A stretch of DNA of 44,016 bases, from sequence record PZ379180.1, one strand, 5' to 3'. Shown in pieces: positions 3,219 to 40,413 of the stretch. Each line of letters starts with the position of its first letter. The stretch's first letter is position 1. Below the pieces are notes generated by a model that did not search any database, was not told where the DNA came from, and saw nothing but the letters and a program-made list of their open reading frames with translations. Made by a program: the position numbers and the translations under genes. Origin of the DNA: a phage.

Positions 3219-4046
3219 ATGTTAACTATGAACGGTCAGAATCAGGGTGTTAAGACAAAACACCGGGAATGGCTGCATCACTTCGATAAATGGCAGAAGG
3301 TACGCCACGCTCTTGAAGGCGACCTTATCCGCTATCTGCGTAACGTCGGGAAGAACGAGCCTGACCAGACCTACGCAGCACAGCGACAGGAAGAATACGA
3401 GAACGGCGCTATCTGCTACAATTTCACCAAACGCACGCTGGCGGGGATGACGGGGTCAGTGATGCGCAAAGACCCTGAGCAGATTATCCCGCCTGAACTT
3501 GAGTACCTGTTGCACAACGCGGACGGTTCAGGTGTCGGGCTGTGGCAGCACGCGCAGGATACGCTGATGGAGATTAACTCGATAGGCCGTGGCGGGTTGC
3601 TGGTGGACGCCCCGGAAACAGCCGCAGCAACGGCGGCAGAGCAGAACGCGGGATTATTAAACCCGGTAATCGCATTCTATACCGCGGAGAACATTATCAA
3701 CTGGAGACTCACCCGCATCGGTTCAGTGAACCGCGTGACGATGGTTGTATTGCGTGAGGCATGGGAATACTCGGAACCAGGCGCTGAGTTTGAAACAAAA
3801 TTCGGCGAGCAATACCGCGTCCTTGACCTGATTGACGGTCGCTACCGCCAGCGCATCTACCGCTTCGATGCCGAAGGTGGCGCACAGGATGAAGTAATCG
3901 AAATCTTCCCGGAACTCGGCGAACAGTTGCGCGGTAAAATCCCGTTCACGTTCATTGGCGCAAGCAACAACGACGCCACTATAGACGATGCGCCTTTACT
4001 GCCGTTAGCTGAGCTAAATATAGGACACTTCAGAAATTCGTACTGA
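3219..4046 (+). CDS. portal protein, N-terminal fragment (frame break near 4030-4046)
   Basis: Position after terL; 275 aa ORF ends at TGA 4044-4046 and the next frame continues from 4024. Confidence 0.7.
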   Translation: MLTMNGQNQGVKTKHREWLHHFDKWQKVRHALEGDLIRYLRNVGKNEPDQTYAAQRQEEYENGAICYNFTKRTLAGMTGSVMRKDPEQIIPPELEYLLHNADGSGVGLWQHAQDTLMEINSIGRGGLLVDAPETAAATAAEQNAGLLNPVIAFYTAENIINWRLTRIGSVNRVTMVVLREAWEYSEPGAEFETKFGEQYRVLDLIDGRYRQRIYRFDAEGGAQDEVIEIFPELGEQLRGKIPFTFIGASNNDATIDDAPLLPLAELNIGHFRNSY

Positions 4047-4047
4047 T

Positions 4048-4701
4048 GTGGAAGAGGCCAGCTTTATAGTAGGTCAACCGACACTGTTCATTGCCCCCGG
4101 CGAGAACATGAGCATGGAGCAGTGGAAAGAAGCCAACCCACACGGCATACGCATGGGGTCGCGTTCAGGCCACAACATCGGCTCCGGCGGAAATGCGTTT
4201 CTGGTTCAGGCGGCGGAAACTAACCTCGCCAAACAGAACATGCTGGATAAAGAGAATCAGGCCATCCAGATTGGCGCGCAGCTTATCACCCCGACGCAGC
4301 AAATCACCGCGGAATCGGCCCGCCTGCAACGCGGCGCCGACACGTCAGTCATGGCAACAATAGCACGTAATGTAAGCATGGCGTATACCGATGCGTTGCG
4401 CTGGGTTGCGGGTATGCTTGGGCTTAGTGAAGATACTGAGATTGAGTTCAAGCTGAATATGGAATTCTTCCTGCAACCGATGACCGCTCAGGACCGCGCT
4501 CAGTGGATGGCGGATATTAACGCTGGCCTGCTACCCGCCACCGCTTACTATGCTGCGTTGCGCAAGGCAGGTGTGACTGACTGGACAGATGAGGACATTC
4601 AGAACGCTATTGAAGACGCACCTCTGCCGTTGGGTTCTGTTGCTCAGGTAGCGGGAGAGATTCCGCAGTCGGCGCAGCAACAGGACACCACTCAGCAGTA
4701 A
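4048..4701 (+). CDS. portal protein, C-terminal fragment
   Basis: 217 aa ORF in +1 frame starting 1 nt after the upstream stop; frame open from 4024. Confidence 0.65.
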   Translation: MEEASFIVGQPTLFIAPGENMSMEQWKEANPHGIRMGSRSGHNIGSGGNAFLVQAAETNLAKQNMLDKENQAIQIGAQLITPTQQITAESARLQRGADTSVMATIARNVSMAYTDALRWVAGMLGLSEDTEIEFKLNMEFFLQPMTAQDRAQWMADINAGLLPATAYYAALRKAGVTDWTDEDIQNAIEDAPLPLGSVAQVAGEIPQSAQQQDTTQQ

Positions 4702-4711
4702 GTTCACCTAT

Positions 4712-4734
4712 AGCCCCGAAAGGGGCTTTCTTAT
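4712..4734 (+). terminator. possible intrinsic terminator
   Basis: AGCCCC-gaaa-GGGGCT hairpin followed by TTCTTAT. Confidence 0.4.
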
Positions 4735-4737
4735 AGT

Positions 4738-5814
4738 ATGCTATTAACTTTAGCGCCACAGGGTTTATCTATGAGCTTACTTACATCCCTAATCAGCCAT
4801 CAGATATGGCTGCAACGCACCGCATCCGGTGAAGTGAAAGACCTCACGCCGTTCATTCAGGAGATAAGGGATGAAATCAAACGGCAGGTGCTGTTATTCG
4901 GTGACGACGGTCGCAGCACTGCGCGACTGAATAAACTGTTACGCGACCTGGAAGAAGCACTAACCGGTATTACGGGTGACTGGCAAACAAAGCTAACAGA
5001 CGACCTTAAGGAACTGGCGGCGTACGAGGCTGAGTGGAACGTAAAGACACTGACCGCCAACGTAGACGCGGAATTTGTTACGCCTACCGCTGAGCAGGTA
5101 TGGGCCGCTGCCGAGTTTCAACCATTATCATTGAGCGACAAGCCCGTTGATTTCACCAAGCTGATGTCTGGATGGGGCGAAACGGAAGTAGCACGTCTTG
5201 TAACTGGAGTTAAGATGGGCTTTGTGCAAGGTCAAACCACACGGCAGATTGTTAAGAATGTTGTTGGCGCTGGTGGACTAGCCGACATCTCAGAACGTAA
5301 CGCGACTACGGTAATCCGCACCGCGCTGTCCCACGTATCCAACGAGGCCCGTAACGAGACGTACCGCCAGAACGACGACATCATCGAGAAATATGAGTGG
5401 GTGTCAACTTTGGACAGCCGTACCAGCACGATTTGCAGGGCCAGAGACGGAATGACGTGGGAAATCGGTAAAGGTCCGATGCCACCAGCCCATCCTAATT
5501 GCCGAAGTACCACTGCACCGGTAATCAGTTCAGAGTTCGACTTCCTTGATAAAGGCGCAAAACGCGCGGCTAAAGGCGCGGAAGGTGGCACTCAGGTAAG
5601 CGCAGACACCACTTACTACGAGTTCCTTAAACAACAACCGGCGTGGTTTCAGGACCAGGCGCTCGGCCCGGTGCGAGGTAAGATTTTCCGTAACAGCGGT
5701 ATATCGCCGGAAGAGTTTCGCGTAATATCTGTAGATGGTTTCGGGAATCCGCTCACGCTTAAGCAGATGGCGGAACTCGATAAACGTGTTGCTGATTATC
5801 TGAAAGGGGAATAA
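4738..5814 (+). CDS. head morphogenesis protein (Mu gpF / SPP1 gp7-like)
   Basis: 358 aa, position after portal, composition typical of minor head proteins. Confidence 0.65.
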   Translation: MLLTLAPQGLSMSLLTSLISHQIWLQRTASGEVKDLTPFIQEIRDEIKRQVLLFGDDGRSTARLNKLLRDLEEALTGITGDWQTKLTDDLKELAAYEAEWNVKTLTANVDAEFVTPTAEQVWAAAEFQPLSLSDKPVDFTKLMSGWGETEVARLVTGVKMGFVQGQTTRQIVKNVVGAGGLADISERNATTVIRTALSHVSNEARNETYRQNDDIIEKYEWVSTLDSRTSTICRARDGMTWEIGKGPMPPAHPNCRSTTAPVISSEFDFLDKGAKRAAKGAEGGTQVSADTTYYEFLKQQPAWFQDQALGPVRGKIFRNSGISPEEFRVISVDGFGNPLTLKQMAELDKRVADYLKGE

Positions 5815-6275
5815 TGATGGGCTTTTTCAAAGTAACTGACGTACCGTCTCGTCGCGTAGTCCAGTACGCCCGCGTGTCTGGCTCTGGCGAGAACGTGGTA
5901 TTTATTGGGGACGAAAGTGTACTCGGTACACCGGTAGATGATATGCCGTTTGCAGATAAAACCGGTATTGCGTTGCCCGCCGCCGGTATGCTTTATGAAA
6001 TTCCGTATCTGGCGGACGCTGGCGACGTGTATTTCTCTGCGCAACCGCAGGACGCTGAACTGGCGGGCGGCAGCGCAACCATCACTGTCGAGGTTAAGGC
6101 AGGCAAAGCGCCGTATTCTCTGACCTGGTACAAAGACGGTAAGGAAGTGGTGAATGCGCCTGAGGAGGCTCTGTCTCTGACGGTTAATGCGGTCGGCGAA
6201 TACTTCGTTAAAGTTACTGATGCCGATGGGGTAGAGGCGGTAAGCAAAGCGGCGAAGGTTACTAAGCCAGAATGA
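5814..6275 (+). CDS. Ig-like domain protein
   Basis: C-terminal segment APYSLTWYKDGKEV...GEYFVKVTDADG resembles Ig-like fold; motif shared with ORF 10544..10894. Confidence 0.5.
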   Translation: MMGFFKVTDVPSRRVVQYARVSGSGENVVFIGDESVLGTPVDDMPFADKTGIALPAAGMLYEIPYLADAGDVYFSAQPQDAELAGGSATITVEVKAGKAPYSLTWYKDGKEVVNAPEEALSLTVNAVGEYFVKVTDADGVEAVSKAAKVTKPE

Positions 6276-6278
6276 TAA

Positions 6279-6299
6279 AAGGCCCCGTTATGGGGCCTT
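6279..6299 (-). terminator. intrinsic terminator (minus-strand T-run)
   Basis: AAGGCCCC-gttat-GGGGCCTT hairpin; on the minus strand followed by TTTTATCATT. Confidence 0.55.
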
Positions 6300-6302
6300 A
6301 GC

Positions 6303-6596
6303 CTACTTTCCTGCCTCATGCGCAATTCGCGCCTCAGCGATAGAAAGATATTCCGAATCCATCTCAATTCCTATAAAGCGGAAACCTTCGCGCATGGCTG
6401 CTTTACCGGTGCTGCCACTCCCCATAAACGGGTCGAGAACCACTCCACCTGGTGGCGTCACAAGGCGGCAAAGGTACGCCATGAGGTCGGTTGGCTTGAC
6501 GGTGGGATGATTATTGGCCTCTCCTCTGTCCTTGCGGCTCGTTTTAGCGCAGTAGAAGAACCGGGCGGCGCTCTTGTCTGTCTCTACGCGCGGCAC
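6303..6596 (-). CDS. DNA N6-adenine methyltransferase, C-terminal fragment
   Basis: FFYCAK, HPTVKP and DPFMGSGST motifs; its frame is open upstream to about 6752 and reads VPANLIHDGSDEV. Confidence 0.8.
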   Translation of the reverse strand: MPRVETDKSAARFFYCAKTSRKDRGEANNHPTVKPTDLMAYLCRLVTPPGGVVLDPFMGSGSTGKAAMREGFRFIGIEMDSEYLSIAEARIAHEAGK

Positions 6597-7465
6597 ATAC
6601 TGCTTACCGTTGTCACTGGTGGCGCCGTAGCAGTTAGCCCGCGAGCGCTGGCTATCATCGCTTTTTCCCTGCTGACCTTTGGCTTCAGGGAAAGCGGTAA
6701 TAACCTCATCGCTTCCGTCATGAATAAGATTGGCTGGTACCAGCGTCCCAATTCATTGCCAGATTGAGGGCCACATGCGTAGGTTGATTCACTTTTTGCG
6801 GCGTGAAGCTGTCCGCCTTTGATGTTGTCTTTATAAGGTGTTCTTCTGGCCCAAACATCCCCCACCACCCGACACCCATCAATATTAATCGCACCTGTCC
6901 CCCACTCCAGCACGTTAGCCGCGACCGTACCTTTGAACGGCTTGCGGGCTACGGTGATTGGCTCAAGTGCTGGTTTGAGTGCGGTGCCCCAGCCGTTCCA
7001 CTGGCGGGCGGATTCGGTGGCGGGGGAGGCGATGTCAAGCCCTTTGCCGTACTCGCCATAGACGCCACCCGTCGTTGCGGTTGCCTCGCTGCGCCCCACC
7101 ACTTCACGCTCTGCGCCTGCCGCCTTGTCGATAGCCTTGCTCACATCCATACTTTTCGGAAAACCACTACCATATACCCATGCAATCATGTCACGAATCT
7201 CAAAACCAGCGTCCTCAATCCGCACAGCCATGCGGTGCTGGGTGCGAGTGCCTGCGAAGGCCAGTAGGTGACCACCTGGCTTCAGGACACGCAGGCATTC
7301 CTCCCAGATTGCCTGTTCTGGCACATCGTAATCCCACTTTTTACCCATAAACGACAGGCCATAAGGCGGGTCGGTGACTATGCTATCTACGGAATTGTCG
7401 GGAATACCCTTTAATACCTCAAGGCAATTCCCTAGATGAATATTGTATGGTTTAGTATAAGCCAT
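6584..7465 (-). CDS. DNA N6-adenine methyltransferase, N-terminal fragment
   Basis: DPPY motif near N-terminus, GTGAINIDGCRV, GRW; last 50 residues of the ORF are out-of-frame read-through; AGGAGG RBS. Confidence 0.85.
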   Translation of the reverse strand: MAYTKPYNIHLGNCLEVLKGIPDNSVDSIVTDPPYGLSFMGKKWDYDVPEQAIWEECLRVLKPGGHLLAFAGTRTQHRMAVRIEDAGFEIRDMIAWVYGSGFPKSMDVSKAIDKAAGAEREVVGRSEATATTGGVYGEYGKGLDIASPATESARQWNGWGTALKPALEPITVARKPFKGTVAANVLEWGTGAINIDGCRVVGDVWARRTPYKDNIKGGQLHAAKSESTYACGPQSGNELGRWYQPILFMTEAMRLLPLSLKPKVSREKAMIASARGLTATAPPVTTVSSMCRA

Positions 7466-7491
7466 TTTCAGCCTCCTGTTTAAGTTAACTG

Positions 7492-7505
7492 AATAGTACC
7501 CTATT
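7492..7505. promoter_or_regulatory. palindromic operator-like site AATAG-N4-CTATT
   Basis: GAATAGtaccCTATTATGTTGG; member of a 6-7 copy family. Confidence 0.5.
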
Positions 7506-7573: not shown

Positions 7574-7616
7574 AACTATTCGAATAGTTGACTTTTCACT
7601 GAAAATGTGCTAAGCT
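7574..7616 (+). promoter_or_regulatory. sigma70-like promoter with adjacent 16-bp perfect palindrome
   Basis: AACTATTCGAATAGTT 7574-7589 overlapping -35 TTGACT 7588-7593; 17-nt spacer; TGcTAAGCT extended -10 at 7608-7616. Confidence 0.5.
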
Positions 7617-11113: not shown

Positions 11114-11626
11114 ATGCCGCTAATCGTGGAAGACGGGTCGATAGTACCTAACGCCGACAGTTACATTAGTCTGGCTGACGCCCGCGCGTTAGCGGCTAAT
11201 TACGGTCTTGAGTTACCCGCAGACGATACTGCCGCAGAGGTGGCACTGCGCAACGGTGCTACTTATGTCGGGCTTGCAGAACCTCAGATGTGTAGCTACC
11301 GCGTATCCGCCGAGCAGTCCCTGGCGTACCCACGTACGGGAACAACACTAAACGGCTTCACCGTAGCTGATAATGTTATCCCACCGCAGTTAATCCGGGC
11401 GCAGGTAATCGCCGCTGTTACGTATGGAGCGGGCACTGATGTTCGGGCTAACTCCGATGGACGTTCCGTGCAGACCGAGCGTGTAGAGGGTGCGGTAACA
11501 GTTACCTACTTCAACAACGGCAACAGCGGGGCCACAACCGCGATTACCGCCGCTGACGACGCCTTACGCCCGTTACTGTGTGGTGGTCTTAACAACGGCT
11601 TCTCATTTAATGTGTACCGGGGTTAA
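11114..11626 (+). CDS. hypothetical structural protein
   Basis: 170 aa ORF in head-tail joining region, RBS AGAGGAA. Confidence 0.4.
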   Translation: MPLIVEDGSIVPNADSYISLADARALAANYGLELPADDTAAEVALRNGATYVGLAEPQMCSYRVSAEQSLAYPRTGTTLNGFTVADNVIPPQLIRAQVIAAVTYGAGTDVRANSDGRSVQTERVEGAVTVTYFNNGNSGATTAITAADDALRPLLCGGLNNGFSFNVYRG

Positions 11627-12243: not shown

Positions 12244-12470
12244 TGAGCACCGCTTTCAGTAAACGTATGCAAGGCGTGGGTACACGCCTGCTAACCAAAT
12301 TCGGCAGCACGGTATCTCTGGTTCGTGCTGGCTCGAAAGTGTGGGATGAAGTTCTCGGTGAGTACGTCTGGTCTGCGGATGAAGTGTTGCCGTTGAAAGC
12401 GGTTCCGGTTCCGGTTAATGCTGGACTGGTAAACGGTTCGACGATTCAGGCGTACCGACATGATTGTTAA
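12243..12470 (+). CDS. head-tail adaptor, N-terminal fragment
   Basis: ATG 12243 (ATGA overlap); frame breaks near 12440-12467. Confidence 0.45.
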   Translation: MSTAFSKRMQGVGTRLLTKFGSTVSLVRAGSKVWDEVLGEYVWSADEVLPLKAVPVPVNAGLVNGSTIQAYRHDC

Positions 12471-17748: not shown

Positions 17749-17964
17749 ATGCCCCCTGAGCTACTAACCACATTTGAGAAGTACAGGGAAATTAAATTCA
17801 CCCGCCGAGTGGACGACGACGGCATCAAGATGTACCCGCGCGAGCAATTACGATGGTCAGATTTAGTGGCGTACAGCACCGTTTCAGGCCAGAATATAGG
17901 GATGTTCGAATCCGACATCATCATGAGCTTAGACGCTATTTTCGAGGGTAGAAACGATGGCTGA
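17749..17964 (+). CDS. hypothetical protein, possibly distal part of chaperone frameshift extension
   Basis: 71 aa ORF overlapping tape measure start; frame open from 17683. Confidence 0.3.
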   Translation: MPPELLTTFEKYREIKFTRRVDDDGIKMYPREQLRWSDLVAYSTVSGQNIGMFESDIIMSLDAIFEGRNDG

Positions 17965-19036
17965 TGTAGCTAGTTTAGTAGTAAAAGTAACAGAGCAAGG
18001 CGCGAAAGCCACATCAGACCGTCTTGACAACCTTTCAAAGTCCGCAAAAGTAGCGGGGGCCGCCGTAGCAGGCCTTGCTTCTATCGTAGCGGCTACCGCG
18101 TATAAAGCTGCCCAAGAACTGGTTGACTCACAGCGGCAACTGGACAAGATGTCCGCCAGTTTGAAGACCTTAACAGGAAGTACCCAAGGTGCTAAACAGG
18201 CGCTAAGTATCCTGCAAGATTTTGCCCGCGATACCCCATACGGACTGGAGCAGGCGGTGGAAGGCTTCCGTAAGCTGGTGGCCCTTGGCCTTACCCCATC
18301 CGAGGAGGCGTTGCGGTCCTACGGCAATACCGCATCGGCTATGGGCAAGGACCTTAATCAGATGATTGAGGCGGTAGCCGACGCCAGTACGTTTGAGTTC
18401 GAACGCCTAAAAGAATTCGGCATCAAAGCCAAGCAGAACAAAAACGACGTAGAGTTTACATTCCAGGGGACAACAACCGTAGTTAAGAAAAGCGCTGCCG
18501 ATATTGAGCAGTATTTACTTAATATTGGTAACGTAAATTTTGCCGGTGCCATGGCGGACCAGGCCAACACCCTTAATGGCGCTATCGCGAGCGCCAGTGA
18601 CTCATGGTCGCAGCTAAAAATGACGCTTGCCACCAGTCTTGATGTTGGCGCACTTGCGGAACCTATCAGGTATATCAATGACTTGATCCAGGAATTAAAT
18701 GCGTCTGTTGCTTCCGGTGAATTAGCCGCTGAAATGCAGATGTGGGGGAACATCGCGTCGGAAGTAGGAAGCGCTATCGAGATGTCATTCGACGCTGCGT
18801 TTGGCTTTGTTGGCGATGCCATCAACGGGCTTAATGAACTGTGGGATTTCAGCAGCAAGAGTATTACGGATAGCGGAGAACAAACGGCTACTACCATCGC
18901 TGAATCCACCGCCGATGCGCTTGACTTCATCGCGGAAGAGTTCACCGCGATGGAGAGATTCTTTGAAGATATGGTTAAAGGCGCGCAGGACGCGGGCCGT
19001 CTTGTACGAGCCGCTTTTACCCCAGGGAATCAGTAG
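17957..19036 (+). CDS. tape measure protein, fragment 1
   Basis: Ala/Gln-rich helical 359 aa ORF after chaperone; frame breaks between 18979 and 19036. Confidence 0.75.
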   Translation: MADVASLVVKVTEQGAKATSDRLDNLSKSAKVAGAAVAGLASIVAATAYKAAQELVDSQRQLDKMSASLKTLTGSTQGAKQALSILQDFARDTPYGLEQAVEGFRKLVALGLTPSEEALRSYGNTASAMGKDLNQMIEAVADASTFEFERLKEFGIKAKQNKNDVEFTFQGTTTVVKKSAADIEQYLLNIGNVNFAGAMADQANTLNGAIASASDSWSQLKMTLATSLDVGALAEPIRYINDLIQELNASVASGELAAEMQMWGNIASEVGSAIEMSFDAAFGFVGDAINGLNELWDFSSKSITDSGEQTATTIAESTADALDFIAEEFTAMERFFEDMVKGAQDAGRLVRAAFTPGNQ

Positions 19037-19074
19037 ACGTAGCTAAAAATATCAACTTCCAGCTTGGCCTGGCT

Positions 19075-19371
19075 TTGGATACCCAGCGCGATGTCGCCGA
19101 CGTTACGCGTAAAAGTTTCCGCGAACAGGTAGAAGCTCAACAGGATATTGTAGCGTTAAAACGCGCGGCGTATGACATCGATAAGGAGTCCGCAAAAGCT
19201 GAGGGGTTAAACAAATTTAAGGTAACCGGAACTGGCGGCGGTTCTGACGATGACGGGTCAGCCGCAAAAGCTGCTAAGAAAGCGGCGGACGCGTTCGAGC
19301 GCCAGAAAAAGCGGCGGAAGACTTCTACTATCAGTCAATCCATCTTAATGATGACGTATTTCAGAAAATAG
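19075..19371 (+). CDS. tape measure protein, fragment 2
   Basis: -1 frame open from 18979 to 19371; breaks at A5 run 19306-19310. Confidence 0.6.
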   Translation: MDTQRDVADVTRKSFREQVEAQQDIVALKRAAYDIDKESAKAEGLNKFKVTGTGGGSDDDGSAAKAAKKAADAFERQKKRRKTSTISQSILMMTYFRK

Positions 19372-19400
19372 AAGCTAACCAGGAAGAGCAACTGTCTAAG

Positions 19401-20294
19401 TTGCAGGATTTTTATAGCAATAAGCTTCTTAGCGACCAACAGTACGAAAACGCCAAGACGCAGATTATGCTCTCTGCCGAACAGGCCCGCCAGGAAGAAC
19501 TGGACAAGAAAAGGAAAGAAGCCCAGGAGAAGCAGCAGAAAGGTGATGATTTCATGGCTCAGATTATGGGCCAGAACGCCACCGAGCTTGAGCTTCTGGA
19601 TATTCAGGAACAGCAGAAACTGGCGGTAGCCGATAAGTACCAGGAACAAGGTCTGATTAGCGAGAAGCAGTATCAGGCCGCGCTTAACGCCATCAACGAG
19701 CAGTACGCAACCAAGCGTGCCGACGCAACGGCAACAGCTTTCGGTAACATGGCTTCAAACATCGGGTCTGCGTTGGGCGAGGCTTCTGGTGCGTACAAGG
19801 CATTCGCTATCGTACAGGCCACTATAGCCACGTACACCGCAGCTATCGAGGCGTACAAGTCAACGGCTGCTATCCCTGTAGTCGGTCCGTTCCTGGCCCC
19901 AGTAGCCGCTGCTGCTGCTGTTGGGGCCGGTATGGCGCAGATTTCCGCTATCAGGTCAGCACGTGAACAGGGTGGACAGTTATCCGCCGGGCAGGCTTCC
20001 ACCATCGCCGAACGCGGTAAACCTGAGGTAATTATGCCGGCGGGGGCGTCGCGAGTACGCACCGCGCAACAAATGAAAGAGATTATGGGCCAAAACGGGT
20101 CTTCTTCCGGCCCATCTAATGTTACTATCGTAAACAACACGAGTTCGCAAATCGGCAACGTATCCACCGAGCAGGATGATGAAGGCCGTCTGCGTATCAT
20201 CATAGAAGAGCAAGTTGCTGCATCTTTGCAGAACAGCAACAGTAAGATTAGCAAGGCCCGCAAGGCCACAAGAAACGCGCCGGGGTTTAAATAA
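19401..20294 (+). CDS. tape measure protein, fragment 3
   Basis: Frame open from 19278; Q/E-rich coiled coil and hydrophobic AAIPVVGPFLAPVAAAAAVGAG segment. Confidence 0.7.
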   Translation: MQDFYSNKLLSDQQYENAKTQIMLSAEQARQEELDKKRKEAQEKQQKGDDFMAQIMGQNATELELLDIQEQQKLAVADKYQEQGLISEKQYQAALNAINEQYATKRADATATAFGNMASNIGSALGEASGAYKAFAIVQATIATYTAAIEAYKSTAAIPVVGPFLAPVAAAAAVGAGMAQISAIRSAREQGGQLSAGQASTIAERGKPEVIMPAGASRVRTAQQMKEIMGQNGSSSGPSNVTIVNNTSSQIGNVSTEQDDEGRLRIIIEEQVAASLQNSNSKISKARKATRNAPGFK

Positions 20295-24238: not shown

Positions 24239-26374
24239 ATGTCAAGCGGATGCGGTGACGTTTTAAGCCTGGCGGATTTACAGACCGCCAAGAAACATCA
24301 GATTTTCGAGGCCGAGGTTATCACTGGCAAATCCGGCGGTGTAGCTACGGGTGCAGACATTGATTACGCAACAAATCAGGTTACGGGACAGACCCAGAAG
24401 ACCATGCCTGCGATATTGAGAGATATTGGATTTGAACCCGCTTCTTTTGATTTTACCACAGGCGGTACCCTCACTTCTTCGGACCGAAATAAAGCCGTTT
24501 TGTGGCCTATGGCGGATGGTGGAGATGGGGATTGGTACTATTGGGAGGGCGCGCTGCCGAAGGTTATCCCGGCCGCATCAACTCCTTCGTCTACTGGTGG
24601 TGTCGCTGAGGGGGCCTGGCGTCCTGTCGGGGATATTCAACTACGCGCACAGCTTGCGTCTAGCGATGACGTGTTTGGCGACATGTTGGTTGCGGTTAAA
24701 CAGCCGTACTATGGTTCTGTACTCCAAACGCAACACAATAAAAACTCCCGAATCCTAGACCTTTACGATTTCAACGGCCTACCATCCAATGCCGATAACA
24801 CATCTGCATTGAATTCGGCCTTATCTGCCATTAACTCTATGGGCGGCGGCTTGCTGCGTATTAATATTCCTGGTGTTTATCTCATATCAGGGACGATAAC
24901 TGTTTACGCAAACACACATATAGTCATGGATGATGGTGTTGTTATTCGCCGAAACTACACAACAGGCGATAGTATGGTGAACCTTGCCCGCAATTCTGCT
25001 AGCAATGTCACTATCTCCGGCGGAGAGTTCGATGGCAACGCGCAAAACATGGGCGATACCGCCTTCAATATTATCTCCAGCACACTGAATACCGACCTCA
25101 AGTTTATAGGGGTTAAGTTCAGTAATGTTTGTGACTACCACTGCATCGACATCGCCGGATGGAAGCGCGTTGTCATTCGTGACTGCGTCTTTTCGGGATT
25201 CAAGTTAGTAGACCCATCACGAAACTATTCGGAAGCCATCCAGCTAGACCCAGGTGATATAAGCATCGGCACACCGACACAATGTAACGATTTGACAGTA
25301 GACAACTGCATCGTCATGCCAAACGCAAACTCTTCGCTCGGCAGTTTTGGCGCTTTGGTGGGAAATCACGCCACCTCATACGGCATACAGGATAACAATA
25401 TAAAAATAATCAATAACACCACAGAGGGGTGTCTTTTTGCCGGTGTTAGGGTTTTCAACTGGAGAAACTACCTTATTGCGGGTAATACATTCAGGGACTC
25501 TACCGGGCGCGGTGTGCACGTAACGCCGTATCCAAACTCAACTAAACCGCAGGGTTCGCGCCACGGTCGCATCGTAAACAATAATTTTATAAATGTACGC
25601 AACCCCGTGCTATTGGTCGCAGCTACCTGGCCCTTCACGGATGCCTCCGATGTTTGGCATGATTACATAGAGATAGTCAACAACTCCATGGAACTAAGTG
25701 AGACGCTCGCCTATGGGATAGATGCAAGATGGTGCCGTAATATCGTCGTATCTGGTAATACCGGTTCGGGCGGGTTGGGGCTTATGTCTATGAGGTTCCC
25801 TAATAAGTTCTCCGTGAAAAACAATACCTGGTCTAACGCTACGAATAATGGTATTTGGATTGCGGAGACCGATGCGACAACATTCATAGGAGCTGGGTTG
25901 ACGGCATTAGGCACTATAGAGGGGAATGTTTTCGAAAATATCGCCTACAATGGCATACATATTAACTGCAAGGCTAACGGCGTTACTATTCGCGGTAACA
26001 CCATGAGCGGTGTCTCTACGGCGGCAACATCCCGCTCCGGCATAACTATAGACTCTGGAGCGAGCAACGTCATAATATCAAACAATTGCATCATGGATAA
26101 TGGTGCGTCGATAAAACCGAACGTTGGTATCATTGCAACAGCTACATGCACAAATGTGCATATGGTGGATAACATCTCCTACGGAGGTGTTTCCCCTATA
26201 AATAACCAAGCCACAGGGAATAGCGTGCTCGTGCATACCGGACCAAATTCACCGATAACAGCAGGCATTGGTGCCCCGGTTGGGTCACAGTACCGTAGAG
26301 TAGATGGGTCCCCCTCAACTAGTTTTTACGTCAAAGAGTCAGGAACAAACTCTATTGGTTGGGTTGCTAAATAA
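24239..26374 (+). CDS. tailspike with right-handed beta-helix (pectate lyase-like) domain
   Basis: 711 aa, repeated N-x-G/T-rich coils (NNIKIINNT, VSGNTGSGG, IRGNTMSG, IISNNCIMDNG); AAAGAGGA RBS. Confidence 0.7.
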   Translation: MSSGCGDVLSLADLQTAKKHQIFEAEVITGKSGGVATGADIDYATNQVTGQTQKTMPAILRDIGFEPASFDFTTGGTLTSSDRNKAVLWPMADGGDGDWYYWEGALPKVIPAASTPSSTGGVAEGAWRPVGDIQLRAQLASSDDVFGDMLVAVKQPYYGSVLQTQHNKNSRILDLYDFNGLPSNADNTSALNSALSAINSMGGGLLRINIPGVYLISGTITVYANTHIVMDDGVVIRRNYTTGDSMVNLARNSASNVTISGGEFDGNAQNMGDTAFNIISSTLNTDLKFIGVKFSNVCDYHCIDIAGWKRVVIRDCVFSGFKLVDPSRNYSEAIQLDPGDISIGTPTQCNDLTVDNCIVMPNANSSLGSFGALVGNHATSYGIQDNNIKIINNTTEGCLFAGVRVFNWRNYLIAGNTFRDSTGRGVHVTPYPNSTKPQGSRHGRIVNNNFINVRNPVLLVAATWPFTDASDVWHDYIEIVNNSMELSETLAYGIDARWCRNIVVSGNTGSGGLGLMSMRFPNKFSVKNNTWSNATNNGIWIAETDATTFIGAGLTALGTIEGNVFENIAYNGIHINCKANGVTIRGNTMSGVSTAATSRSGITIDSGASNVIISNNCIMDNGASIKPNVGIIATATCTNVHMVDNISYGGVSPINNQATGNSVLVHTGPNSPITAGIGAPVGSQYRRVDGSPSTSFYVKESGTNSIGWVAK

Positions 26375-26378
26375 AACT

Positions 26379-26402
26379 AAGGCCCCGTTTGGGGCCTTTT
26401 CT
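26379..26402 (+). terminator. intrinsic terminator
   Basis: AAGGCCCC-gttt-GGGGCCTT hairpin followed by TTTTCTC. Confidence 0.6.
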
Positions 26403-26540
26403 CTACTCTTCTGATAACTTCTCCAGTACAAACGCCAGTTGCGCATTAGCGGCGTCTCTTTGCTGGCGTAATCGTAGAACCTCTTCTTCAAGTTCCTTGA
26501 TACGTTTTTGCAACGCCGGAATCGGGGCTGTGATGTTCAT
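26403..26540 (-). CDS. small coiled-coil protein (45 aa)
   Basis: ATG at 26540 overlapping upstream stop (ATGA); below track cutoff. Confidence 0.3.
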   Translation of the reverse strand: MNITAPIPALQKRIKELEEEVLRLRQQRDAANAQLAFVLEKLSEE

Positions 26541-27052
26541 TTGACAAATTTCCTCGCAAGATACGTTATTTCTTCTTCACAAAGTTCATCGAGGTCGTTA
26601 GATACAAATCCTCTGGTGAATGTTTTGCTGAACTTTAAGCCCGCTTTATCATTGTCACCGGCGCACGCCCAACCATACGGCAAAAGTGACATTTGCTGCC
26701 GTAAGTCAGCTGGTATGTTCGACCCCAATGCGCTAACTGCATTAAACCCACAATTCATCAAAGCAACAGCTTTAAATATGCTTTCGGTGACGAATACCAC
26801 CCCGCTACTTGGCAAATACTCAAGTCCCCATAAACACGGCCTTGTTGTTCGGGTAAAGTACCGCGCGTCTTTAGGGTTTTTACAGTTCTTTTCCGCATGT
26901 GGTTTGTAATGCTGGTACCCGCGTAGCTTACCGTCAAAGCCCCACAGGTAAAACGTAGCTACTCCAGGGCCTAAGACTACCTGGAGACGGTCTGCGTCAA
27001 AACCTCGTGACAGCAGATGCGCCTTAAGTAGTAACTCCTCGCCATCCATCAT
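26537..27052 (-). CDS. TOPRIM domain protein (primase-associated, putative)
   Basis: VFVTESIFKAVAL and CAGDNDKAG segments resemble TOPRIM acidic motifs. Confidence 0.45.
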   Translation of the reverse strand: MMDGEELLLKAHLLSRGFDADRLQVVLGPGVATFYLWGFDGKLRGYQHYKPHAEKNCKNPKDARYFTRTTRPCLWGLEYLPSSGVVFVTESIFKAVALMNCGFNAVSALGSNIPADLRQQMSLLPYGWACAGDNDKAGLKFSKTFTRGFVSNDLDELCEEEITYLARKFVK

Positions 27053-28473
27053 TTCTTACCTCGTCTCTTCATGTAATTAAGCAACTCTTCCTGTACCGAT
27101 TTCTTCTCGTCAGTACGTGTGGCAACAACCTCGTCCAGCGTGTCTTTAGCGACGATGTGATAGAGGAACACCGGTCGCTCGTGCCCCGCTTGTTTCTGGC
27201 GGACCGGGCCTATACGCTCAACAACCTGCAAATAGTGCTCAAGGTTCCAGCCTTGCGAGATGAACGCCAGATGATGACCCCCGTCCTGTAAATTCAAACC
27301 ATGCCCGGCTGACGCAGGATGCACGCATAAAATCTCGATTTCCCCACGGTTCCACGCTTCCATCTGCTTGTTACCCTTAGCCCCTTTGGCGAATGCCTGG
27401 GCCTGCGGGAATCGCTTAAGGATGCGCTCCAGTTCGTGCTTGAACTGATAAGCCACCAGCAACGGCGCGCCCTGTAACTCCTCGACAATAGACTCCAGCG
27501 CATCCAGTTTCGTGTCGTGCACTTTCTCCCATTCTTTGGTTGCTTCGCCGTCTTCGCCCGTCACATACACGGCACCGGATGCAATCTGCAAGCACTTTGA
27601 GGTCTTCGCCGCAGCGTTAGCCGCTTCAACTTCCCCGCTCTCCAGTTCTGCGAATAACTTCTCCTCCATATCTATGTACGCCTGACGTGCTTTCTTCGGC
27701 AGGTCGATTTCAACCGGCACGATAACAGGCGCTTCACAACCGAACCACTCGGCGGCGTCAATCGTCAGACTGATGTCCTTCATCTTCTGGTGAATCTCGT
27801 TATCTGCACCAGGGCGGGCGTGATATTCACGTGCCATCGCAGATTTTCCTTTCTGTACCGAATTAAACCAGCGGTCGGTGAATGCTGTATACGACGAACC
27901 TAGGCGCTCGCCAGCGTCGATAAACCAGTTCTGGCCCCACAAATCCTTGAGGCCGTTTGGTGACGGTGTACCAGTCAGGTTAATAAAACGCTTAACCCTT
28001 CCGAAAGCCACTTTACTAAGCGCCTTTGCACGCTTGCTACCACCTGAACGGCTGCGGAATGATTTAAGCTTCGTGCTTTCATCTGCAACGATAACCGTAA
28101 AAGGCCAGTCGTCTTTGCCGTAGTAGTCAATCAGCCACTCGATAACCTCATAGTTCGTGCAAACCACGTTAGCATCTGACTCCAGCGCCGCGATGCGGCG
28201 CTTCTCTGAACCAGTCGCATCTACAACACGCAGACATGGGAATTGCCATTTCTCTTGCTCTGCAGGCCACGTACCAGACGCAACCCGCAGCGGGGCGAGG
28301 ATTAACACGCGGTCGTCATCATTAAGTTGGTAGTTTCGGAACAGTCGGTTTAATGCCCACAGTACGCTGCCAGTCTTCCCAGCGCCCATGCTTGCCCATA
28401 TGTTGCAGCGATGGTGCCGCAGCATGAACGAAGTCATGAGCTTTTGGTACTCACGCCTTTGAAACTTACTCAT
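27049..28473 (-). CDS. SNF2-family DNA helicase
   Basis: Walker A GAGKTG, DEST box (VIVADESTKLKS), LTGTP, C-terminal helicase motifs. Confidence 0.85.
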   Translation of the reverse strand: MSKFQRREYQKLMTSFMLRHHRCNIWASMGAGKTGSVLWALNRLFRNYQLNDDDRVLILAPLRVASGTWPAEQEKWQFPCLRVVDATGSEKRRIAALESDANVVCTNYEVIEWLIDYYGKDDWPFTVIVADESTKLKSFRSRSGGSKRAKALSKVAFGRVKRFINLTGTPSPNGLKDLWGQNWFIDAGERLGSSYTAFTDRWFNSVQKGKSAMAREYHARPGADNEIHQKMKDISLTIDAAEWFGCEAPVIVPVEIDLPKKARQAYIDMEEKLFAELESGEVEAANAAAKTSKCLQIASGAVYVTGEDGEATKEWEKVHDTKLDALESIVEELQGAPLLVAYQFKHELERILKRFPQAQAFAKGAKGNKQMEAWNRGEIEILCVHPASAGHGLNLQDGGHHLAFISQGWNLEHYLQVVERIGPVRQKQAGHERPVFLYHIVAKDTLDEVVATRTDEKKSVQEELLNYMKRRGKK

Positions 28474-29395
28474 TTACCGCCCCCATGAATGCCTTTATAA
28501 ATTCAGCAGCTACTTGCGGGACGATGGCATTGCCGTAACCGCGCAATCGTCCCACTCTGGCGGGTATCCCATCAGCCAGCGGGAATGTGCCGGGTTCAAC
28601 TGGCCTGAATTTTCCATCCCGGCATCCGAGCCAGTCTGCCTCTGACCAGAAGCCGTGATGCGGATTGGTCGCGATATTTTCAGTCCCTGCTCCGTTGAGT
28701 AGTCCAGCCTGTCGAAAGTCCGGTCCTTTCCGTCCTTGCGAATCACTGTCTCTCCGCTCCCTCTGTAATCGTTCGCGGTCGGCGTCGCCCATGCCGTCAT
28801 CGCGGCGGCCCACCCCAGTTTGTTCGGTTTCGTCCTGCCGTCTGTGCTGCGCATGTTCACGTCGTTTGTTATCAGTGATACTGCTGGCGTGGGCCAATCT
28901 ATGCGCGCCGAAGAAAAGTCGGTCGCGTTTGTGCGGTGCGCCGACGCTACAAGCTGGGAGTACGGCAAACCCGACGGCGTAGTTTTCTCCTTCCAGGTGA
29001 GTTTGTAAATCGCACATCCACGATTTTGCAATTGCTGGCGCAACCTGCTCCCCAAAGAGGACTGGAGGGCGGCACTCGCTGATGAGGTCGAGGAACACAG
29101 GTGCGAGGTGTCTCGGGTCGAACTGTCCGAGTTGCTTTCCCGCTGCGCTAAACGGTTGGCAAGGCGGGCTTCCCGTCCAGAGAGGCGCATCTTCCGGAAC
29201 TCCCGCAAGTCTGAGCGCGAGAGGCCAGCCGCCGATACCAGCGAAAAAATGACACTGGGTGAATCCGTCGAGGTCTTCTGGCTTAACTTCAGTAATGCTT
29301 CTTTCATCTACAACTCCAAAAGGTATGTGACCCTGTTTTATTAATTCACGCAGCCACGCGGCTGCGCCTTTATCCCATTCGTTGTAATAGTTCAT
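28466..29395 (-). CDS. DNA C5-cytosine methyltransferase (central third apparently out of frame)
   Basis: Motif I FAGIGGW, motif IV GSPPCQPFSAAG, motif VIII APHKRDRLFFGA, motif X GNAIVPQV in this frame; TRD and motif IX lie in overlapping frame 28510..29307. Confidence 0.75.
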   Translation of the reverse strand: MNYYNEWDKGAAAWLRELIKQGHIPFGVVDERSITEVKPEDLDGFTQCHFFAGIGGWPLALRLAGVPEDAPLWTGSPPCQPFSAAGKQLGQFDPRHLAPVFLDLISECRPPVLFGEQVAPAIAKSWMCDLQTHLEGENYAVGFAVLPACSVGAPHKRDRLFFGAHRLAHASSITDNKRREHAQHRRQDETEQTGVGRRDDGMGDADRERLQRERRDSDSQGRKGPDFRQAGLLNGAGTENIATNPHHGFWSEADWLGCRDGKFRPVEPGTFPLADGIPARVGRLRGYGNAIVPQVAAEFIKAFMGAVNE

Positions 29396-29982: not shown

Positions 29983-30114
29983 TCATTCCAGCACCCACAG
30001 ATAAATTGTTACTAACATACCTAATACGGCAACCATCATGCCGTATTGACCCTCGTGACAGTAGACACCGGCGGCGAATCCCGCCAGTACCGCAATAATC
30101 AGTTTACTTGGCAT
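29983..30114 (-). CDS. small membrane peptide (43 aa)
   Basis: Hydrophobic ORF MPSKLIIAVLAGFAAGVY..., below track cutoff. Confidence 0.25.
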   Translation of the reverse strand: MPSKLIIAVLAGFAAGVYCHEGQYGMMVAVLGMLVTIYLWVLE

Positions 30115-31492
30115 ATCGCTTCATCTCCGCACCTTCAGCTACAAGAGGGAACCCCTCCGCCCATTCCGGCAATTCGCACATCAACCGCTCAAGCTCTGCT
30201 ACATTGTATTCCGGTGAATCTGGTGTCTCGCAGATAATCTCATCGTGTACGTGAAGTACAATCGGGTAGCCGTTTGCTTCTACGTTCAGCAGGGCATTAG
30301 CCAGCAAATCACGGCACAATGCCTGAGTGCAGTTTTCCACCAGTTTACCCGAGTAGGTGTACTGGAACCCCCACTGACGGGTTAGCTGATTTTCGCCCTG
30401 GTACTTAATGCGCACGTTAGTAGACACCTTCCCGTCTCCATCTGTTTCTTTCGACACGCTCAACCCGACGCCCGGATAAGACATAACGCGACCCGACGGC
30501 AACGTCATGCGCAACCACCAACCAGCGACTTTGTTGCCGTTGTTGTCCGTTTCTACGTTACGCGAAAACTTAACACCCCGCGGTCCCGCAGTGAACTCTT
30601 TACCTGGATTGCGGATAGCCGCCATAGCCGCGTCTTCAATATCACGCCAGAAAGCTACTGTTTCCGGGTGTGACTCACGCCACATGCGCTTGATAGCGTC
30701 GCAGGTACGCCACACTTTCTTATCAAGAATATACGATGGTCGGTCATCCTTTTCACCTGGCCGCGGAGGTCGCTTGGCTTCCTGAATACGTGCCCATTCA
30801 TAGCCGCGTGCAGTAGCGGCCCATATATGGTTGGGGAATGTCCCGTCCATTGTTTTTGCCATATCAACCAGGTTTAAGCCGAGGTTCTTAGCAAACTGAA
30901 CGAAAGCACCGACACCACCAGCATAGCCAAGGCCCAATTCACATGCTTTACCTATCTGGCGTAGGTCACTACGGCTTTCGAGAATGTAATCAGGGTCCAT
31001 GCCGAACATCTTACCCGCGGTTACACAGTAAATATCCAATCCCGCACGGAAGGTATCGAGAGCGGTTTCTTCTCCCGCCAGCCATGCCAACCCGCGACCT
31101 TCAACGTTAGAGTAATCAGCTACGACAAACTTACGCCCGGCTTCCGGTATGATGCAGCTACGCACCGTCGATGCCGTTAGCTTGGCTACATCGAAACGGC
31201 GATGCGCGCGGCCTTTAAACAACAGGTCGATTCCGTAGGACAATGGGTGTGTTACCCTCCACCAGTCCTTCTCTGACATCCAGTCATAACGTACTTTCTT
31301 CTTTTTATTCTTCGGGTCGTCATGATAGTACCCGCGCGCCAGGTTCTGTGGCTGGAAGCCTTTACCCGCGAACCGTAACGTACGCTTTGCCCCACCGTAC
31401 TGGATACAACCGCGGCGTCGGTCGTCCGACGAGCGGCCTAACAGCAGCGGGTTATATTTCGTGGACGCTGTTGACGCGGCCCCGAGGCGCAT
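30104..31492 (-). CDS. DNA polymerase family A, polymerase-domain fragment
   Basis: Motif A VADYSNVEGRGLAWLAG, motif B RQIGKACELGLGYAGG, motif C LHVHDEIICE. Confidence 0.85.
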   Translation of the reverse strand: MRLGAASTASTKYNPLLLGRSSDDRRRGCIQYGGAKRTLRFAGKGFQPQNLARGYYHDDPKNKKKKVRYDWMSEKDWWRVTHPLSYGIDLLFKGRAHRRFDVAKLTASTVRSCIIPEAGRKFVVADYSNVEGRGLAWLAGEETALDTFRAGLDIYCVTAGKMFGMDPDYILESRSDLRQIGKACELGLGYAGGVGAFVQFAKNLGLNLVDMAKTMDGTFPNHIWAATARGYEWARIQEAKRPPRPGEKDDRPSYILDKKVWRTCDAIKRMWRESHPETVAFWRDIEDAAMAAIRNPGKEFTAGPRGVKFSRNVETDNNGNKVAGWWLRMTLPSGRVMSYPGVGLSVSKETDGDGKVSTNVRIKYQGENQLTRQWGFQYTYSGKLVENCTQALCRDLLANALLNVEANGYPIVLHVHDEIICETPDSPEYNVAELERLMCELPEWAEGFPLVAEGAEMKRYAK

Positions 31493-32370
31493 TTCGATAA
31501 TCGTGCGGGCGTCGTCAGGTAAATCATCATCGGTACCAGCAGGTCATTCAGCGTCGACTTCTGTGCGTTGTGTATGCGGTGTGCGGGGGCCAGTTCACGT
31601 AGAATAGGCAGAAAGTCCTTACCGGTAAGCGAGCCGCCGTATTTACGTTGAGCTTCTTCCTGTAACTGTGCCTTGTGCTTCTCTACGGCTTCAATCGCGG
31701 CTTCCGCCAGTGCGACGTCAACCTTAAATCCGCGGTCGTTGATTAACTGGTCAAGTTCCAGTACACGGTCTTCGAACTCGGAGTTACCCCAACGCGGCAG
31801 CTTATGGAAGACTTCACGCATCGCAGTGATGTCGCTCACGGCGTACCTGATGAACATCGCCCACTCGTCAGGGTGAGTTTCTGCGGTGTAGCGGCGGATT
31901 TTGTAGTTCTTCGGCGTCGGTTTAGAGAAACGCTTAATCAGAGCCTTGCCGCGTTTATCTTTCGCGTTGTCTGCAGACACGCCCAGCACTTCGCACAGCG
32001 CATCAAGAGAACCCGGCAGCGCGTGACGGAACGCCCAAATCATAGTATCAATGGTGTTACTTACCGGAATATCAAAGCCCCAGCAGTGTTTCATGATTAG
32101 GCGATCGAAAAGTCCACCGTTGTGCCATACCATCTTAATGCGACTGTTTGGCTTAACCAGACGGCGTAGAGCGCGGTGTAAATCCACGGGCATATCACTG
32201 CCGTCGGTGCAATCCCATACCTGTACAGGCTCGTCGTCAAAAGCGTAGGTACAGATAAGCACTTCGGTAGTTGGATGCTCGGCGTAAGCATAGGAGCCGA
32301 CTTTCTTCAAATCGGCTTCGGAGAATGTTTCAAAGTCTAAGTAAAGCAATGTGTTCATAGTCTGTACCAC
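31438..32370 (-). CDS. DNA polymerase family A, 3'-5' exonuclease-domain fragment
   Basis: Exo I motif LYLDFETFS; ORF overlaps the polymerase fragment by 55 nt in another frame. Confidence 0.8.
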   Translation of the reverse strand: MVQTMNTLLYLDFETFSEADLKKVGSYAYAEHPTTEVLICTYAFDDEPVQVWDCTDGSDMPVDLHRALRRLVKPNSRIKMVWHNGGLFDRLIMKHCWGFDIPVSNTIDTMIWAFRHALPGSLDALCEVLGVSADNAKDKRGKALIKRFSKPTPKNYKIRRYTAETHPDEWAMFIRYAVSDITAMREVFHKLPRWGNSEFEDRVLELDQLINDRGFKVDVALAEAAIEAVEKHKAQLQEEAQRKYGGSLTGKDFLPILRELAPAHRIHNAQKSTLNDLLVPMMIYLTTPARLSKCASGPRQQRPRNITRCC

Positions 32371-33447: not shown

Positions 33448-33603
33448 TTAAGCATATTGGTACGGTTCGAACTCATCCTCTACAGGGTAGTATCGCATCA
33501 TGGTACCGTTCAAGAACGTGAACGATTCCGAGTGTAGATACCCATCCCAGTGCCATACCATCAAAAAATCTTTATCAGTCGGCATTTCATTTACTTGAAT
33601 CAT
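33448..33603 (-). CDS. hypothetical protein
   Basis: ATG at 33603 with AGGAGG RBS (track ORF 33448..33633). Confidence 0.35.
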   Translation of the reverse strand: MIQVNEMPTDKDFLMVWHWDGYLHSESFTFLNGTMMRYYPVEDEFEPYQYA

Positions 33604-40020: not shown

Positions 40021-40196
40021 TGTTTAAGAAGGGTCAGTTGGTTAAAACTAAACGCGGAGGGCAATATGTATTAGTGTTGCAGGACGAGGATAATCTGGTT
40101 GACGTATGGGGTCTGGTAAGAAAGAAAACTGGGTTCGCCTCACGCGATAATTTAGAACTCATCGGCAACAATTTTAAATTCAAAGGGGCGAAGTGA
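40021..40196 (+). CDS. hypothetical protein
   Basis: ATG 40021 with GAGGAGTGAGGG RBS (track ORF starts 40011). Confidence 0.4.
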
Positions 40197-40413
40197 TGGA
40201 AGAATTAATTTGTATTGAATCCCGCCAGGATGTGCAGGATTGGTTTGTGAAAGGTAACAAATATTCGTCAGGAGTATATTACGACGGTACCGTCGATACG
40301 TTTTAGATGAAGACGGTGATGAATGGGATTTAGAGGACACTGCGGGCGAGACTTTAACCGTTAGTTTTCTTCAATGTTGTTTCCGCATCATTCACAACGG
40401 CATCGAATCATGA
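40196..40413 (+). pseudogene. hypothetical small gene with apparent frame break at T-run 40301-40304
   Basis: ATG 40196 frame stops at 40304-40306; -1 frame continues to TGA 40411-40413. Confidence 0.3.

Follow-up and report, generated by a model that had tools for sequence, protein, structure and literature searches.

The adenine-type DNA methylase gene of this phage, which is recorded in two reading frames, was most probably broken by a sequencing or assembly error of a motif-specific class, and the gene is most likely intact in the real phage; we put the probability of this reading, which is built on comparisons with related genomes, at about 0.82. The window (the whole stretch of DNA that was analysed, 44,016 bp) is the genome of a Kagunavirus-like (Guernseyvirinae) E. 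coli siphophage, whose closest records, fEg-Eco06, SHAK7858, BEU33/35 and K-01, are about 94–96% identical to it over the structural half. The spurious dinucleotide TA that interrupts the methylase gene, in the middle of a presumed TGGCCA, would be one instance of a GGCC (mostly within YGGCCR) misread as GGTA, GGTAC or GGTACC.

One methylase gene in two reading frames

The whole gene, as delimited by its match to PF01555 and by its homologues, occupies 6303..7465 on the minus strand (ATG at 7465-7463, TAG at 6305-6303), and is 1163 nt long as recorded, or 1161 nt (386 aa plus stop) without the TA at 6738-6739 that interrupts the frame in the recorded sequence. Codons 1–242 (M...GRW; 6740..7465, minus strand), established by translation and by alignment of 10 intact homologues, make up the upstream frame, which reads MAYTKPY...VTDPPYGL...GNELGRW and then, out of frame, meets a stop at 6584 (ORF 6584..7465, 293 aa). 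Translation and homologues likewise place codons 243–386 and the stop (PANLIHDGSD...HEAGK-stop) at 6303..6737 on the same strand, in a frame offset by 2 nt that reads PANLIHDGSDEV...FFYCAK...HPTVKP...DPFMGSGST...HEAGK-stop. The first-pass annotation had called this a DPPY-type methylase with its frame broken near 6740, and both points are borne out: DPPY is present in a protein that matches the beta-class family PF01555, and GRW is followed by PANLIHDGSD... only in the offset frame.

In the repaired protein, the catalytic motif IV, DPPY, falls at residues 32–35 (7361-7372), motif X, HPTVKP, at residues 319–324 (6492-6509) and the SAM-binding motif I, DPFMGSGST, at residues 344–352 (6408-6434). 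The order DPPY, HPTVKP, DPFMGSGST, with the catalytic motif N-terminal and FxGxG C-terminal, is that of the beta class, and a variable target-recognition region would lie in mid-protein, between DPPY and the C-terminal SAM-binding motifs. Against PF01555 (N6_N4_Mtase), the repaired 386-aa protein gives E = 2e-34 and 119.8 bits (cutoff 26.7) over model positions 1-220 of 221, a coverage for which both halves are needed; it also matches phrog_67. Intact, one-piece homologues show 78–83% identity to it (78–86% for the gene's comparison sequences). Judged in this way, this is a single gene rather than two, predicted to encode a 386-aa orphan beta-class amino-methyltransferase.

Which base might such an enzyme modify? 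DPPY, rather than SPPY/F, in motif IV is taken as a sign of N6-adenine as against N4-cytosine specificity. The best solved relatives of the methylase are adenine enzymes (N4-cytosine enzymes match too), and together with DPPY they point to adenine as the probable target base. From what is general in the family, the enzyme would flip the base out of the helix and methylate its exocyclic amino group with SAM as donor.

The two extra bases at 6738-6739

Along the coding strand, the W codon (6742-6740) is followed by the extra TA (6739-6738) and then by the P codon (6737-6735). In DNA alignments, three intact homologues (BUCT618 and the P0001 and P0009 contigs) have CGCTGG--CCC where the window has CGCTGGTACCA. 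The insertion (6738..6739) thus stands at the centre of a probable TGG^CCA, a YGGCCR site, and the change at 6738 would be from TGG^CCA to TGGTACCA; the ancestral TGGCCA is only inferred, since the homologues (78–86% identical) read TGGCCC. The two bases give rise to a GGTACC (6736-6741) and displace the frame inside a block, GRWPANLIHDGS, that is invariant in 11 homologues and nearly invariant in 28. Their deletion restores both the full-length PF01555 match and this block.

No second lesion was found in the methylase gene, and all of its invariant residues are kept. In the repaired frame both halves show purifying selection (pN/pS 0.08–0.15), the value being 0.11 for the upstream half (against P0001 and BUCT618) and 0.075 for the downstream half, read in the shifted frame against the nearest relatives. 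Within 20 nt downstream of the break there are four differences from the homologues, all of them synonymous in the shifted frame.

Might both frames be put to use, either as two assembling subunits or through a ribosomal frameshift at the junction? Two-subunit C5 methylases, M.AquI and M.EcoHK31I, do exist (PMC3404938), and PHROGs has separate families for the N-terminal and C-terminal halves of methylases like this one (phrog_6025 and phrog_3008). Those half-families, however, meet near residue 170, whereas the present break is inside the invariant block, through which (as GRWPANLIHDG) all 28 of the 28 aligned homologues are single-chain and in a single frame. The first downstream start codon, a GTG at 6596, would drop PANLIHD from a second subunit. 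As for recoding, the junction, CGC UGG UAC CAG CCA, has no slippery heptamer of the form X XXY YYZ (none is present at CGCUGGUACCAGCC), and the -1/+2 shift would be needed at a type of site that is plainly erroneous in other genes of the record. With no slippery site, no early internal start, an unbroken invariant block in the homologues and single-chain homologues throughout, a programmed frameshift or a two-subunit enzyme was rejected, and we regard it as scarcely credible.

Lesions of the same kind elsewhere in the record

Lesions were scored against close Kagunavirus relatives by counting uncompensated frame-breaking indels, and the window has at least 11 of them. In four, a short run has lost a single base; the other seven, that in the methylase included, coincide with a GGCC in the relative, which belongs to a YGGCCR in six cases, and show the signature GGCC to GGTA, GGTAC or GGTACC. 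The view taken in the first-pass annotation, that the split is a feature of the methylase itself, does not survive this comparison: GG[TA]CC is found also at 31534 and 40288, and related lesions occur elsewhere.

The lesion at 31534..31535 is a TA insertion in the DNA polymerase I gene, at CGG^CCAG. Here, CGG^CCA has become CGGTACCA, and fEg-Eco06 and BEU35 are identical to the window over 60 nt on either side except for the 2-nt gap. The polymerase, a single 727-aa protein in the relatives, is cut into ORFs 30104..31492 and 31438..32370, with Pfam matches on both pieces. This case is decisive, because the same two bases have entered the same motif, in an otherwise identical context, in an indispensable gene. 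The third TA insertion (40288..40289, by comparison with relatives) changes CGG^CCG to CGGTACCG and shortens a small ORF (40193..40306, plus strand). Of the seven KpnI sites in the record, three (6736, 31532 and 40286) would be products of these insertions.

Other lesions with this signature add a net single base. The portal gene, which relatives have as a single 493-aa ORF, is split into 3219..4046 and 4048..4701 by a change at 4040..4043, where SHAK7858 has CG-GCCG and the window CGTACTG (that is, CGGCCG to CGTACTG, net +1); a tail-completion (Neck1) gene is broken at 12452..12455 (CGG-CCG to CGTACCG, net +1) and a small minus-strand gene at 33460..33463 (TGGC-CGG to TGGTACGG, or TGGCCG to TGGTACG, net +1). 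In a small gene at 314, GGC^CC has become GGCTCC. The deletions in runs comprise C6 to C5 (in the tail chaperone gene, at 17751), C5 to C4 or G4 to G3, GG to G, and T5 to T4 (in a PD-(D/E)XK nuclease gene, at 34093). The tape-measure gene (17957-20294, plus strand) has lost one nucleotide from each of two short runs, near 19020 and at 19311 (19020..19311), and is thereby left in three frames when set beside the relatives. Changes with the same signature as the GGCC lesions that preserve the frame but alter amino acids were also seen: TGGCCG to TGGTAG at 28331 and 42732, CGGCCA to CTACCA at 15606, CGGCCG to TAGCTA at 11293 and GGCC to GACT at 5303. In addition, the window has miscalls of the C to T or G to A type (GGCC to GGTC, GGCT or AGCT).

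This class of error and the homopolymer deletions would together break essential genes as well as the methylase. A genome with these lesions as recorded could not be viable, and would yield no virions. Because lesions of the same type are found in essential genes, an artefact of sequencing or assembly is the best reading of the methylase split.

There are points on the other side. A 2-nt insertion outside a homopolymer is unlike classic random error; five YGGCCR sites in the window look normal, so the error process would have to be incomplete; and the methylase is dispensable, so that a real frameshift would be tolerable there, unlike in the portal gene. The gene could accordingly be a genuine pseudogene, in which case a real 2-bp insertion would have knocked out a cargo methylase that this lineage can do without. 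The frame break is, after all, present in the sequence, and the gene is an accessory one (relatives hold other genes in its place). Truncation ahead of HPTVKP and DPFMGSGST would abolish activity, for the 293-aa product, deprived of motif X and motifs I–III, would not bind SAM. But the identical lesion is present in DNA polymerase I, and related ones affect the genes for the portal, neck and tape-measure proteins, in which real lesions are impossible, and the same rare change would have to be real in the methylase yet an error in the polymerase. Moreover, the lesion is single, and the 145 downstream codons are stop-free with the low pN/pS given above for the shifted frame. We therefore consider a genuine pseudogene improbable.

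YGGCCR and the possible cause of the errors

YGGCCR is the site of EaeI and CfrI. BEU35 has 14 such sites, of which 12 are unchanged in fEg-Eco06 and three in the window, and YGGCCR is changed more than other GGCC classes (Fisher p = 9e-6 and 1e-5). With seven of the 11 frame-breaking indels on GGCC, the binomial p is about 2e-10, for a motif that was spotted post hoc. No indels at these YGGCCR sites were found when relatives were set against one another. The window has five YGGCCR sites and the five relatives with the same C5 methylase have 15–20, which fits some 11 corrupted sites.

Several other ways of describing the errors were considered. Clustering of the frameshifts at GTAC was rejected, as the tape-measure breaks are homopolymer deletions and GTAC occurs 184 times against 172 expected: GTAC is a product of the error, not its target. 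A genome-wide loss of GGCC was rejected too, there being 155 sites in the window and a similar density in relatives; GGCC is absent from the most-changed 4-mers, and only the YGGCCR subclass is affected. A screen for motifs among differences private to the window was too noisy, from real divergence at third codon positions, and a screen of clustered differences was likewise noisy, yet yielded three further GGCC events.

What might single out YGGCCR? The first-pass annotation had proposed that the genome holds a second methylase of different chemistry, and this was confirmed: a predicted C5-cytosine DNA methylase of 309 aa, matching PF00145 (62.6 bits against a cutoff of 22), is encoded at 28466..29395 on the minus strand, adjoining a helicase gene. 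It falls in the TIGR00675 dcm superfamily and in phrog_363, and its best PDB match is M.HhaI. The frame is intact, the length is that of the fEg-Eco06 protein, and the protein is 99–100% identical to those of fEg-Eco06, BEU35 and BEU33. The gene is absent from SHAK7858, the lone relative without it, which has seven YGGCCR sites; those missing there, compared with fEg-Eco06 and BEU35, are absent through single substitutions. The association between the presence of the C5 methylase and the YGGCCR count is suggestive, with one negative genome only.

For nanopore assemblies, consensus errors that DNA modification produces at particular motifs have been described (PMC11610573, PMC11610603). The window resembles those cases in the single short motif, the homopolymer deletions and the encoded methylase, and differs in that its signature includes TA insertions, not just changes of C to T or G to A. 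Modification is suspected here because homopolymer deletions with errors at one motif resemble modification-affected nanopore consensus, and because a C5 methylase is encoded. There is a precedent for the specificity in E. coli, in the restriction-modification system EcoHK31I, which recognizes YGGCCR (PMC3404938). It is thus a tentative suggestion, to which we would give rather less than an even chance, that the errors are the footprint of virion DNA modified at YGGCCR, most probably by the phage's own C5 enzyme, the consensus having been miscalled at about 11 of about 16 YGGCCR sites.

The artefact might also be real but independent of DNA modification, arising at some other step that depends on motif, such as library construction, a polishing tool or the assembly of restriction fragments. 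That GGCC overall is undepleted (155 sites), and that five YGGCCR sites are intact, would be in keeping with such an origin, but homopolymer deletions alongside the other errors are what one typically meets in nanopore consensus, a C5 methylase is encoded by the phage, miscalls of the C to T or G to A type are present, and we found no cloning scheme that gives a TA insertion at GG^CC. An origin of this sort seems unlikely to us. Whatever the cause of the errors, modification or other, the verdict on the methylase split is unchanged.

The methylase as cargo in a variable slot

The slot that holds the methylase gene has sharp edges. On the left is a GC-rich hairpin terminator (6279..6299, from a terminator scan), between the methylase and a convergent gene for a Hoc-like decoration protein (5814-6275, plus strand); fEg-Eco06, fEg-Eco19 and EM1 have this hairpin conserved, and directly after it similarity stops. 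On the right is a ribosome-binding site, AGGAGG (7472..7477, minus strand), 6 nt upstream of the ATG, at which backbone similarity to fEg-Eco06 resumes, the site itself being shared, so that the methylase ORF fills the slot exactly. Other phages fill the same slot differently: a 67-aa ORF stands there in fEg-Eco06, SHAK7858, Bas70 and K-01, one of 114 aa in several metagenomic contigs, an annotated DNA polymerase III beta subunit gene in fEg-Eco19 and a Dam-type methylase in EM1. Contigs with an identical Hoc-like protein have other cargo.

The methylase gene itself has moved among locations. On the 45-kb Kagunavirus-like contig that encodes its nearest orthologue, P0001, the slot is another one, flanked by the genes for the portal and MuF; further orthologues come from the unrelated E. 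coli phage BUCT618 and from beside a terminase gene on an unrelated contig. Moreover, the window gene is a mosaic, with its N-terminal half closest to P0001 and BUCT618 and its C-terminal half, in DNA as in protein sequence, to P0009, the junction being near the conserved GRWPANLIHD block. No cognate endonuclease gene adjoins the methylase, whose neighbours are the Hoc-like gene and terminator on one side and a conserved intergenic region and spanin genes on the other; the methylase is therefore taken to be an orphan and not part of a type II restriction-modification system. The C5 methylase, too, has no partner endonuclease alongside. These genomic comparisons show the adenine-type methylase to be a mobile orphan cargo gene.

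Close to the start of the gene there is a palindrome, AATAG-TACC-CTATT (7492..7505), 26 nt from the start codon. An AATAG-N4-CTATT site near the methylase start had been remarked on in the first-pass annotation, and it is indeed there, but the implied tie to the methylase falls away, as the element belongs to the backbone. The window has seven exact copies of AATAG-N4-CTATT, and 11 with at most one mismatch against 1.13 expected. The copies at 29622, 33390 and 36283 fill the 17–18-nt spacer of a leftward promoter, TTGAC(A/G)...TATAGT, and those at 7492, 17047 and 39973 share a longer form, TGAATAGTAnnCTATTAT(G/A)TTGG. At 7492, the better -10-like hexamer, TATGTT, faces rightward, away from the methylase, and the copy sits in DNA that is conserved in fEg-Eco06 regardless of the cargo gene. 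The palindrome is uninformative on the methylase, because there are seven copies in the genome and because this one is conserved in a relative with a different gene in the slot; it is a regulatory or promoter-associated element of the backbone, and provides no evidence on the methylase.

Relationship to known methylases

Among named homologues, UOK17941.1 of Escherichia phage BUCT618, a site-specific DNA-methyltransferase, comes closest; the closest of all is P0001. The window enzyme shares with these phage-borne orphan PF01555 enzymes the order DPPY...TRD...HPTVKP...FxGxG, 78–83% identity and the lack of an endonuclease. It differs from the BUCT618 enzyme, in which an insertion adds about 235 aa behind GFPKS, and from both in that the window copy alone bears the TA as recorded. 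A structure prediction for the P0001 protein (from a 28-sequence alignment) had a mean pLDDT of 37.6, too low for use.

Among characterized enzymes, CcrM (the GANTC N6-adenine methylase, PDB 6pbd) aligns over the catalytic DPPY and the C-terminal SAM-binding half (E = 2e-21), the downstream half of the window protein corresponding to CcrM residues 194-260; this C-terminal half also matches DpnA, M.RsrI and M.MboIIA. Against the CcrM equivalog model NCBIfam NF050803 the window methylase scores 85.1 bits, where the cutoff is 830, and it does not reach the YhdJ equivalog threshold. The specificity of CcrM is not transferable to it, because the central recognition region is unrelated.

M.EcoGII and M.EcoGI are non-specific adenine methylases of E. 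coli prophages, for which action in the lytic stage has been proposed, and a methylase of phage 1720a-02 is named as very similar to M.EcoGII (PMC5778455). These enzymes and the window methylase are alike in being beta-class, phage-borne and without a partner endonuclease. Membership of the M.EcoGII family was rejected, since the identity to the 1720a-02 methylase is 26%. In 5,426 complete E. coli genomes, no close DNA match to the methylase, chromosomal or in a prophage, was found.

Implications

Both predicted methylases are real and ordinary. During infection the orphan enzyme would methylate the N6 of adenine in phage DNA, and a set of phage sites may in this way be shielded from host restriction, alongside whatever is protected by the separate C5-cytosine methylase. 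Phages commonly carry orphan methylases, often two or more in a genome, as anti-restriction cargo, and self-methylation as an anti-restriction strategy, put forward at the outset from the presence of the two genes, is plausible here too. The biology is little changed by the frame break, as the adenine-type methylase has intact relatives with 78–83% identity. The lesson for annotation is a different one: in a record with at least 11 frame-breaking errors, no call of a broken or split gene, or of a frameshift, in the window should be trusted before the sequence has been verified. The clustering of errors at YGGCCR, for its part, is a testable lead to the specificity of the C5 methylase. If it is correct, a specificity could be assigned to a methylase cassette that is present in several Kagunaviruses, and the phage would be protected by at least two methylases of its own with different chemistry, of which the adenine one would only seem to be broken.

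Frame breaks and record quality

The split reading frame of the adenine methylase is far from isolated: comparison of the window with close relatives reveals at least 10 further uncompensated indels that break genes (at 314, 4040, 12454, 17751, 19020, 19311, 31534, 33462, 34093 and 40288), two of them in the tape measure and one each in the portal gene, a Neck1 gene, a tail chaperone, DNA polymerase I, a PD-(D/E)XK nuclease and three small ORFs. This is a draft-quality record, which makes every frameshift call within the window suspect. The major head protein of phage K-01 (L023 37900-39026) is annotated as two overlapping CDS, so it appears that other deposited Kagunavirus records are also affected by frameshift-type problems. 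PHROGs provides a distinct family for each half of the methylase (phrog_6025 for the N-terminal part, residues 5-166 of the repaired protein, and phrog_3008 for the C-terminal part, residues 172-382), from which it follows that methylase halves annotated as distinct genes recur in phage records, where they may be real splits, inteins or sequencing errors. An insertion of about 235 aa between GFPKS and KAIDKAAGAE lengthens the orthologue in phage BUCT618 (L001 13-1875) to 620 aa, and several mycobacteriophage and cyanophage homologues also align in two or more pieces.

YGGCCR sites and the second methylase

The window shows specific corruption of sites that read YGGCCR in relatives, GGCC being replaced by GGTA, GGTAC or GGTACC (or AGCT or GACT); to the indel sites can be added in-frame corrupted sites at 1300, 5303, 11293, 15606, 28331 and 42732. 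Only 5 YGGCCR sites are left in the window, compared with 15-20 in relatives that have the same C5-cytosine methylase. Cytosine modification of YGGCCR may have left this corruption as its footprint. The cassette adjacent to the helicase gene, in which this second methylase lies (window 28466-29395; L023 18366-19310; also 25833-26618 and 4298-4301 in the comparison sequences L025 and L022, respectively), differs between phages: the 309-aa C5 enzyme of fEg-Eco06, BEU33 and BEU35 shows 99-100% identity to that of the window, K-01 has a variant of about 72% identity and Bas70 a 261-aa deletion variant. SHAK7858 has no methylase in this cassette, and is the relative with the lowest YGGCCR count (7).

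Cargo hot spots

One hot spot for cargo separates the Hoc-like decoration gene from the spanin region and is bounded by a common terminator and a common RBS (window 6302-7465; fEg-Eco06, L002, 11161-11367; L011 685-1377; L012 654-1175; L013-L020 about 3560-3935). Depending on the phage, it holds the present methylase, a 67-aa ORF, a 114-aa ORF, an annotated DNA polymerase III beta subunit or a Dam-type methylase. The portal and MuF head-morphogenesis genes flank a second hot spot (L003 6001-7170; L013, L014 and L018 1162-1815; L008 4707-5096). One Kagunavirus-like contig carries here the closest orthologue of the window methylase; elsewhere the position is taken by unrelated ORFs (217 or 129 aa), and in the window it is empty (36 bp). 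The neighbouring gene for the MuF-type minor head protein is annotated in fEg-Eco06 (L002 8736-10673; 1938 bp) with an inserted intein, which the 1077-bp window gene (4738-5814) lacks.

Repeated and avoided palindromes

The palindrome AATAG-N4-CTATT recurs throughout the window, with 11 matches at no more than one mismatch against 1.1 expected (exact at 7492, 17047, 29622, 33390, 36283, 39973 and 41040; one mismatch at 4732, 7583, 36328 and 43488). Three copies form the spacer of leftward consensus sigma-70 promoters (TTGACA-N17/18-TATAGT); three others have a poor -35 and share the longer form TGAATAGTAnnCTATTATRTTGG, a combination consistent with a regulated class of promoter. The element is probably an operator for a phage regulator. 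A perfect 16-bp palindrome at 7574-7589, AACTATTCGAATAGTT, lies upstream of the spanin genes, in the conserved intergenic region; it is built from the same half-sites (CTATT/AATAG), and a TTGACT hexamer directly overlaps it.

GATC is nearly missing (8 sites in the whole window, against 110-280 for other 4-bp palindromes), CTAG is also scarce (22 sites), and four relatives have only 4-10 GATC sites. GATC avoidance is a group-wide trait, either of passive anti-restriction or directed against Dam/MutH.
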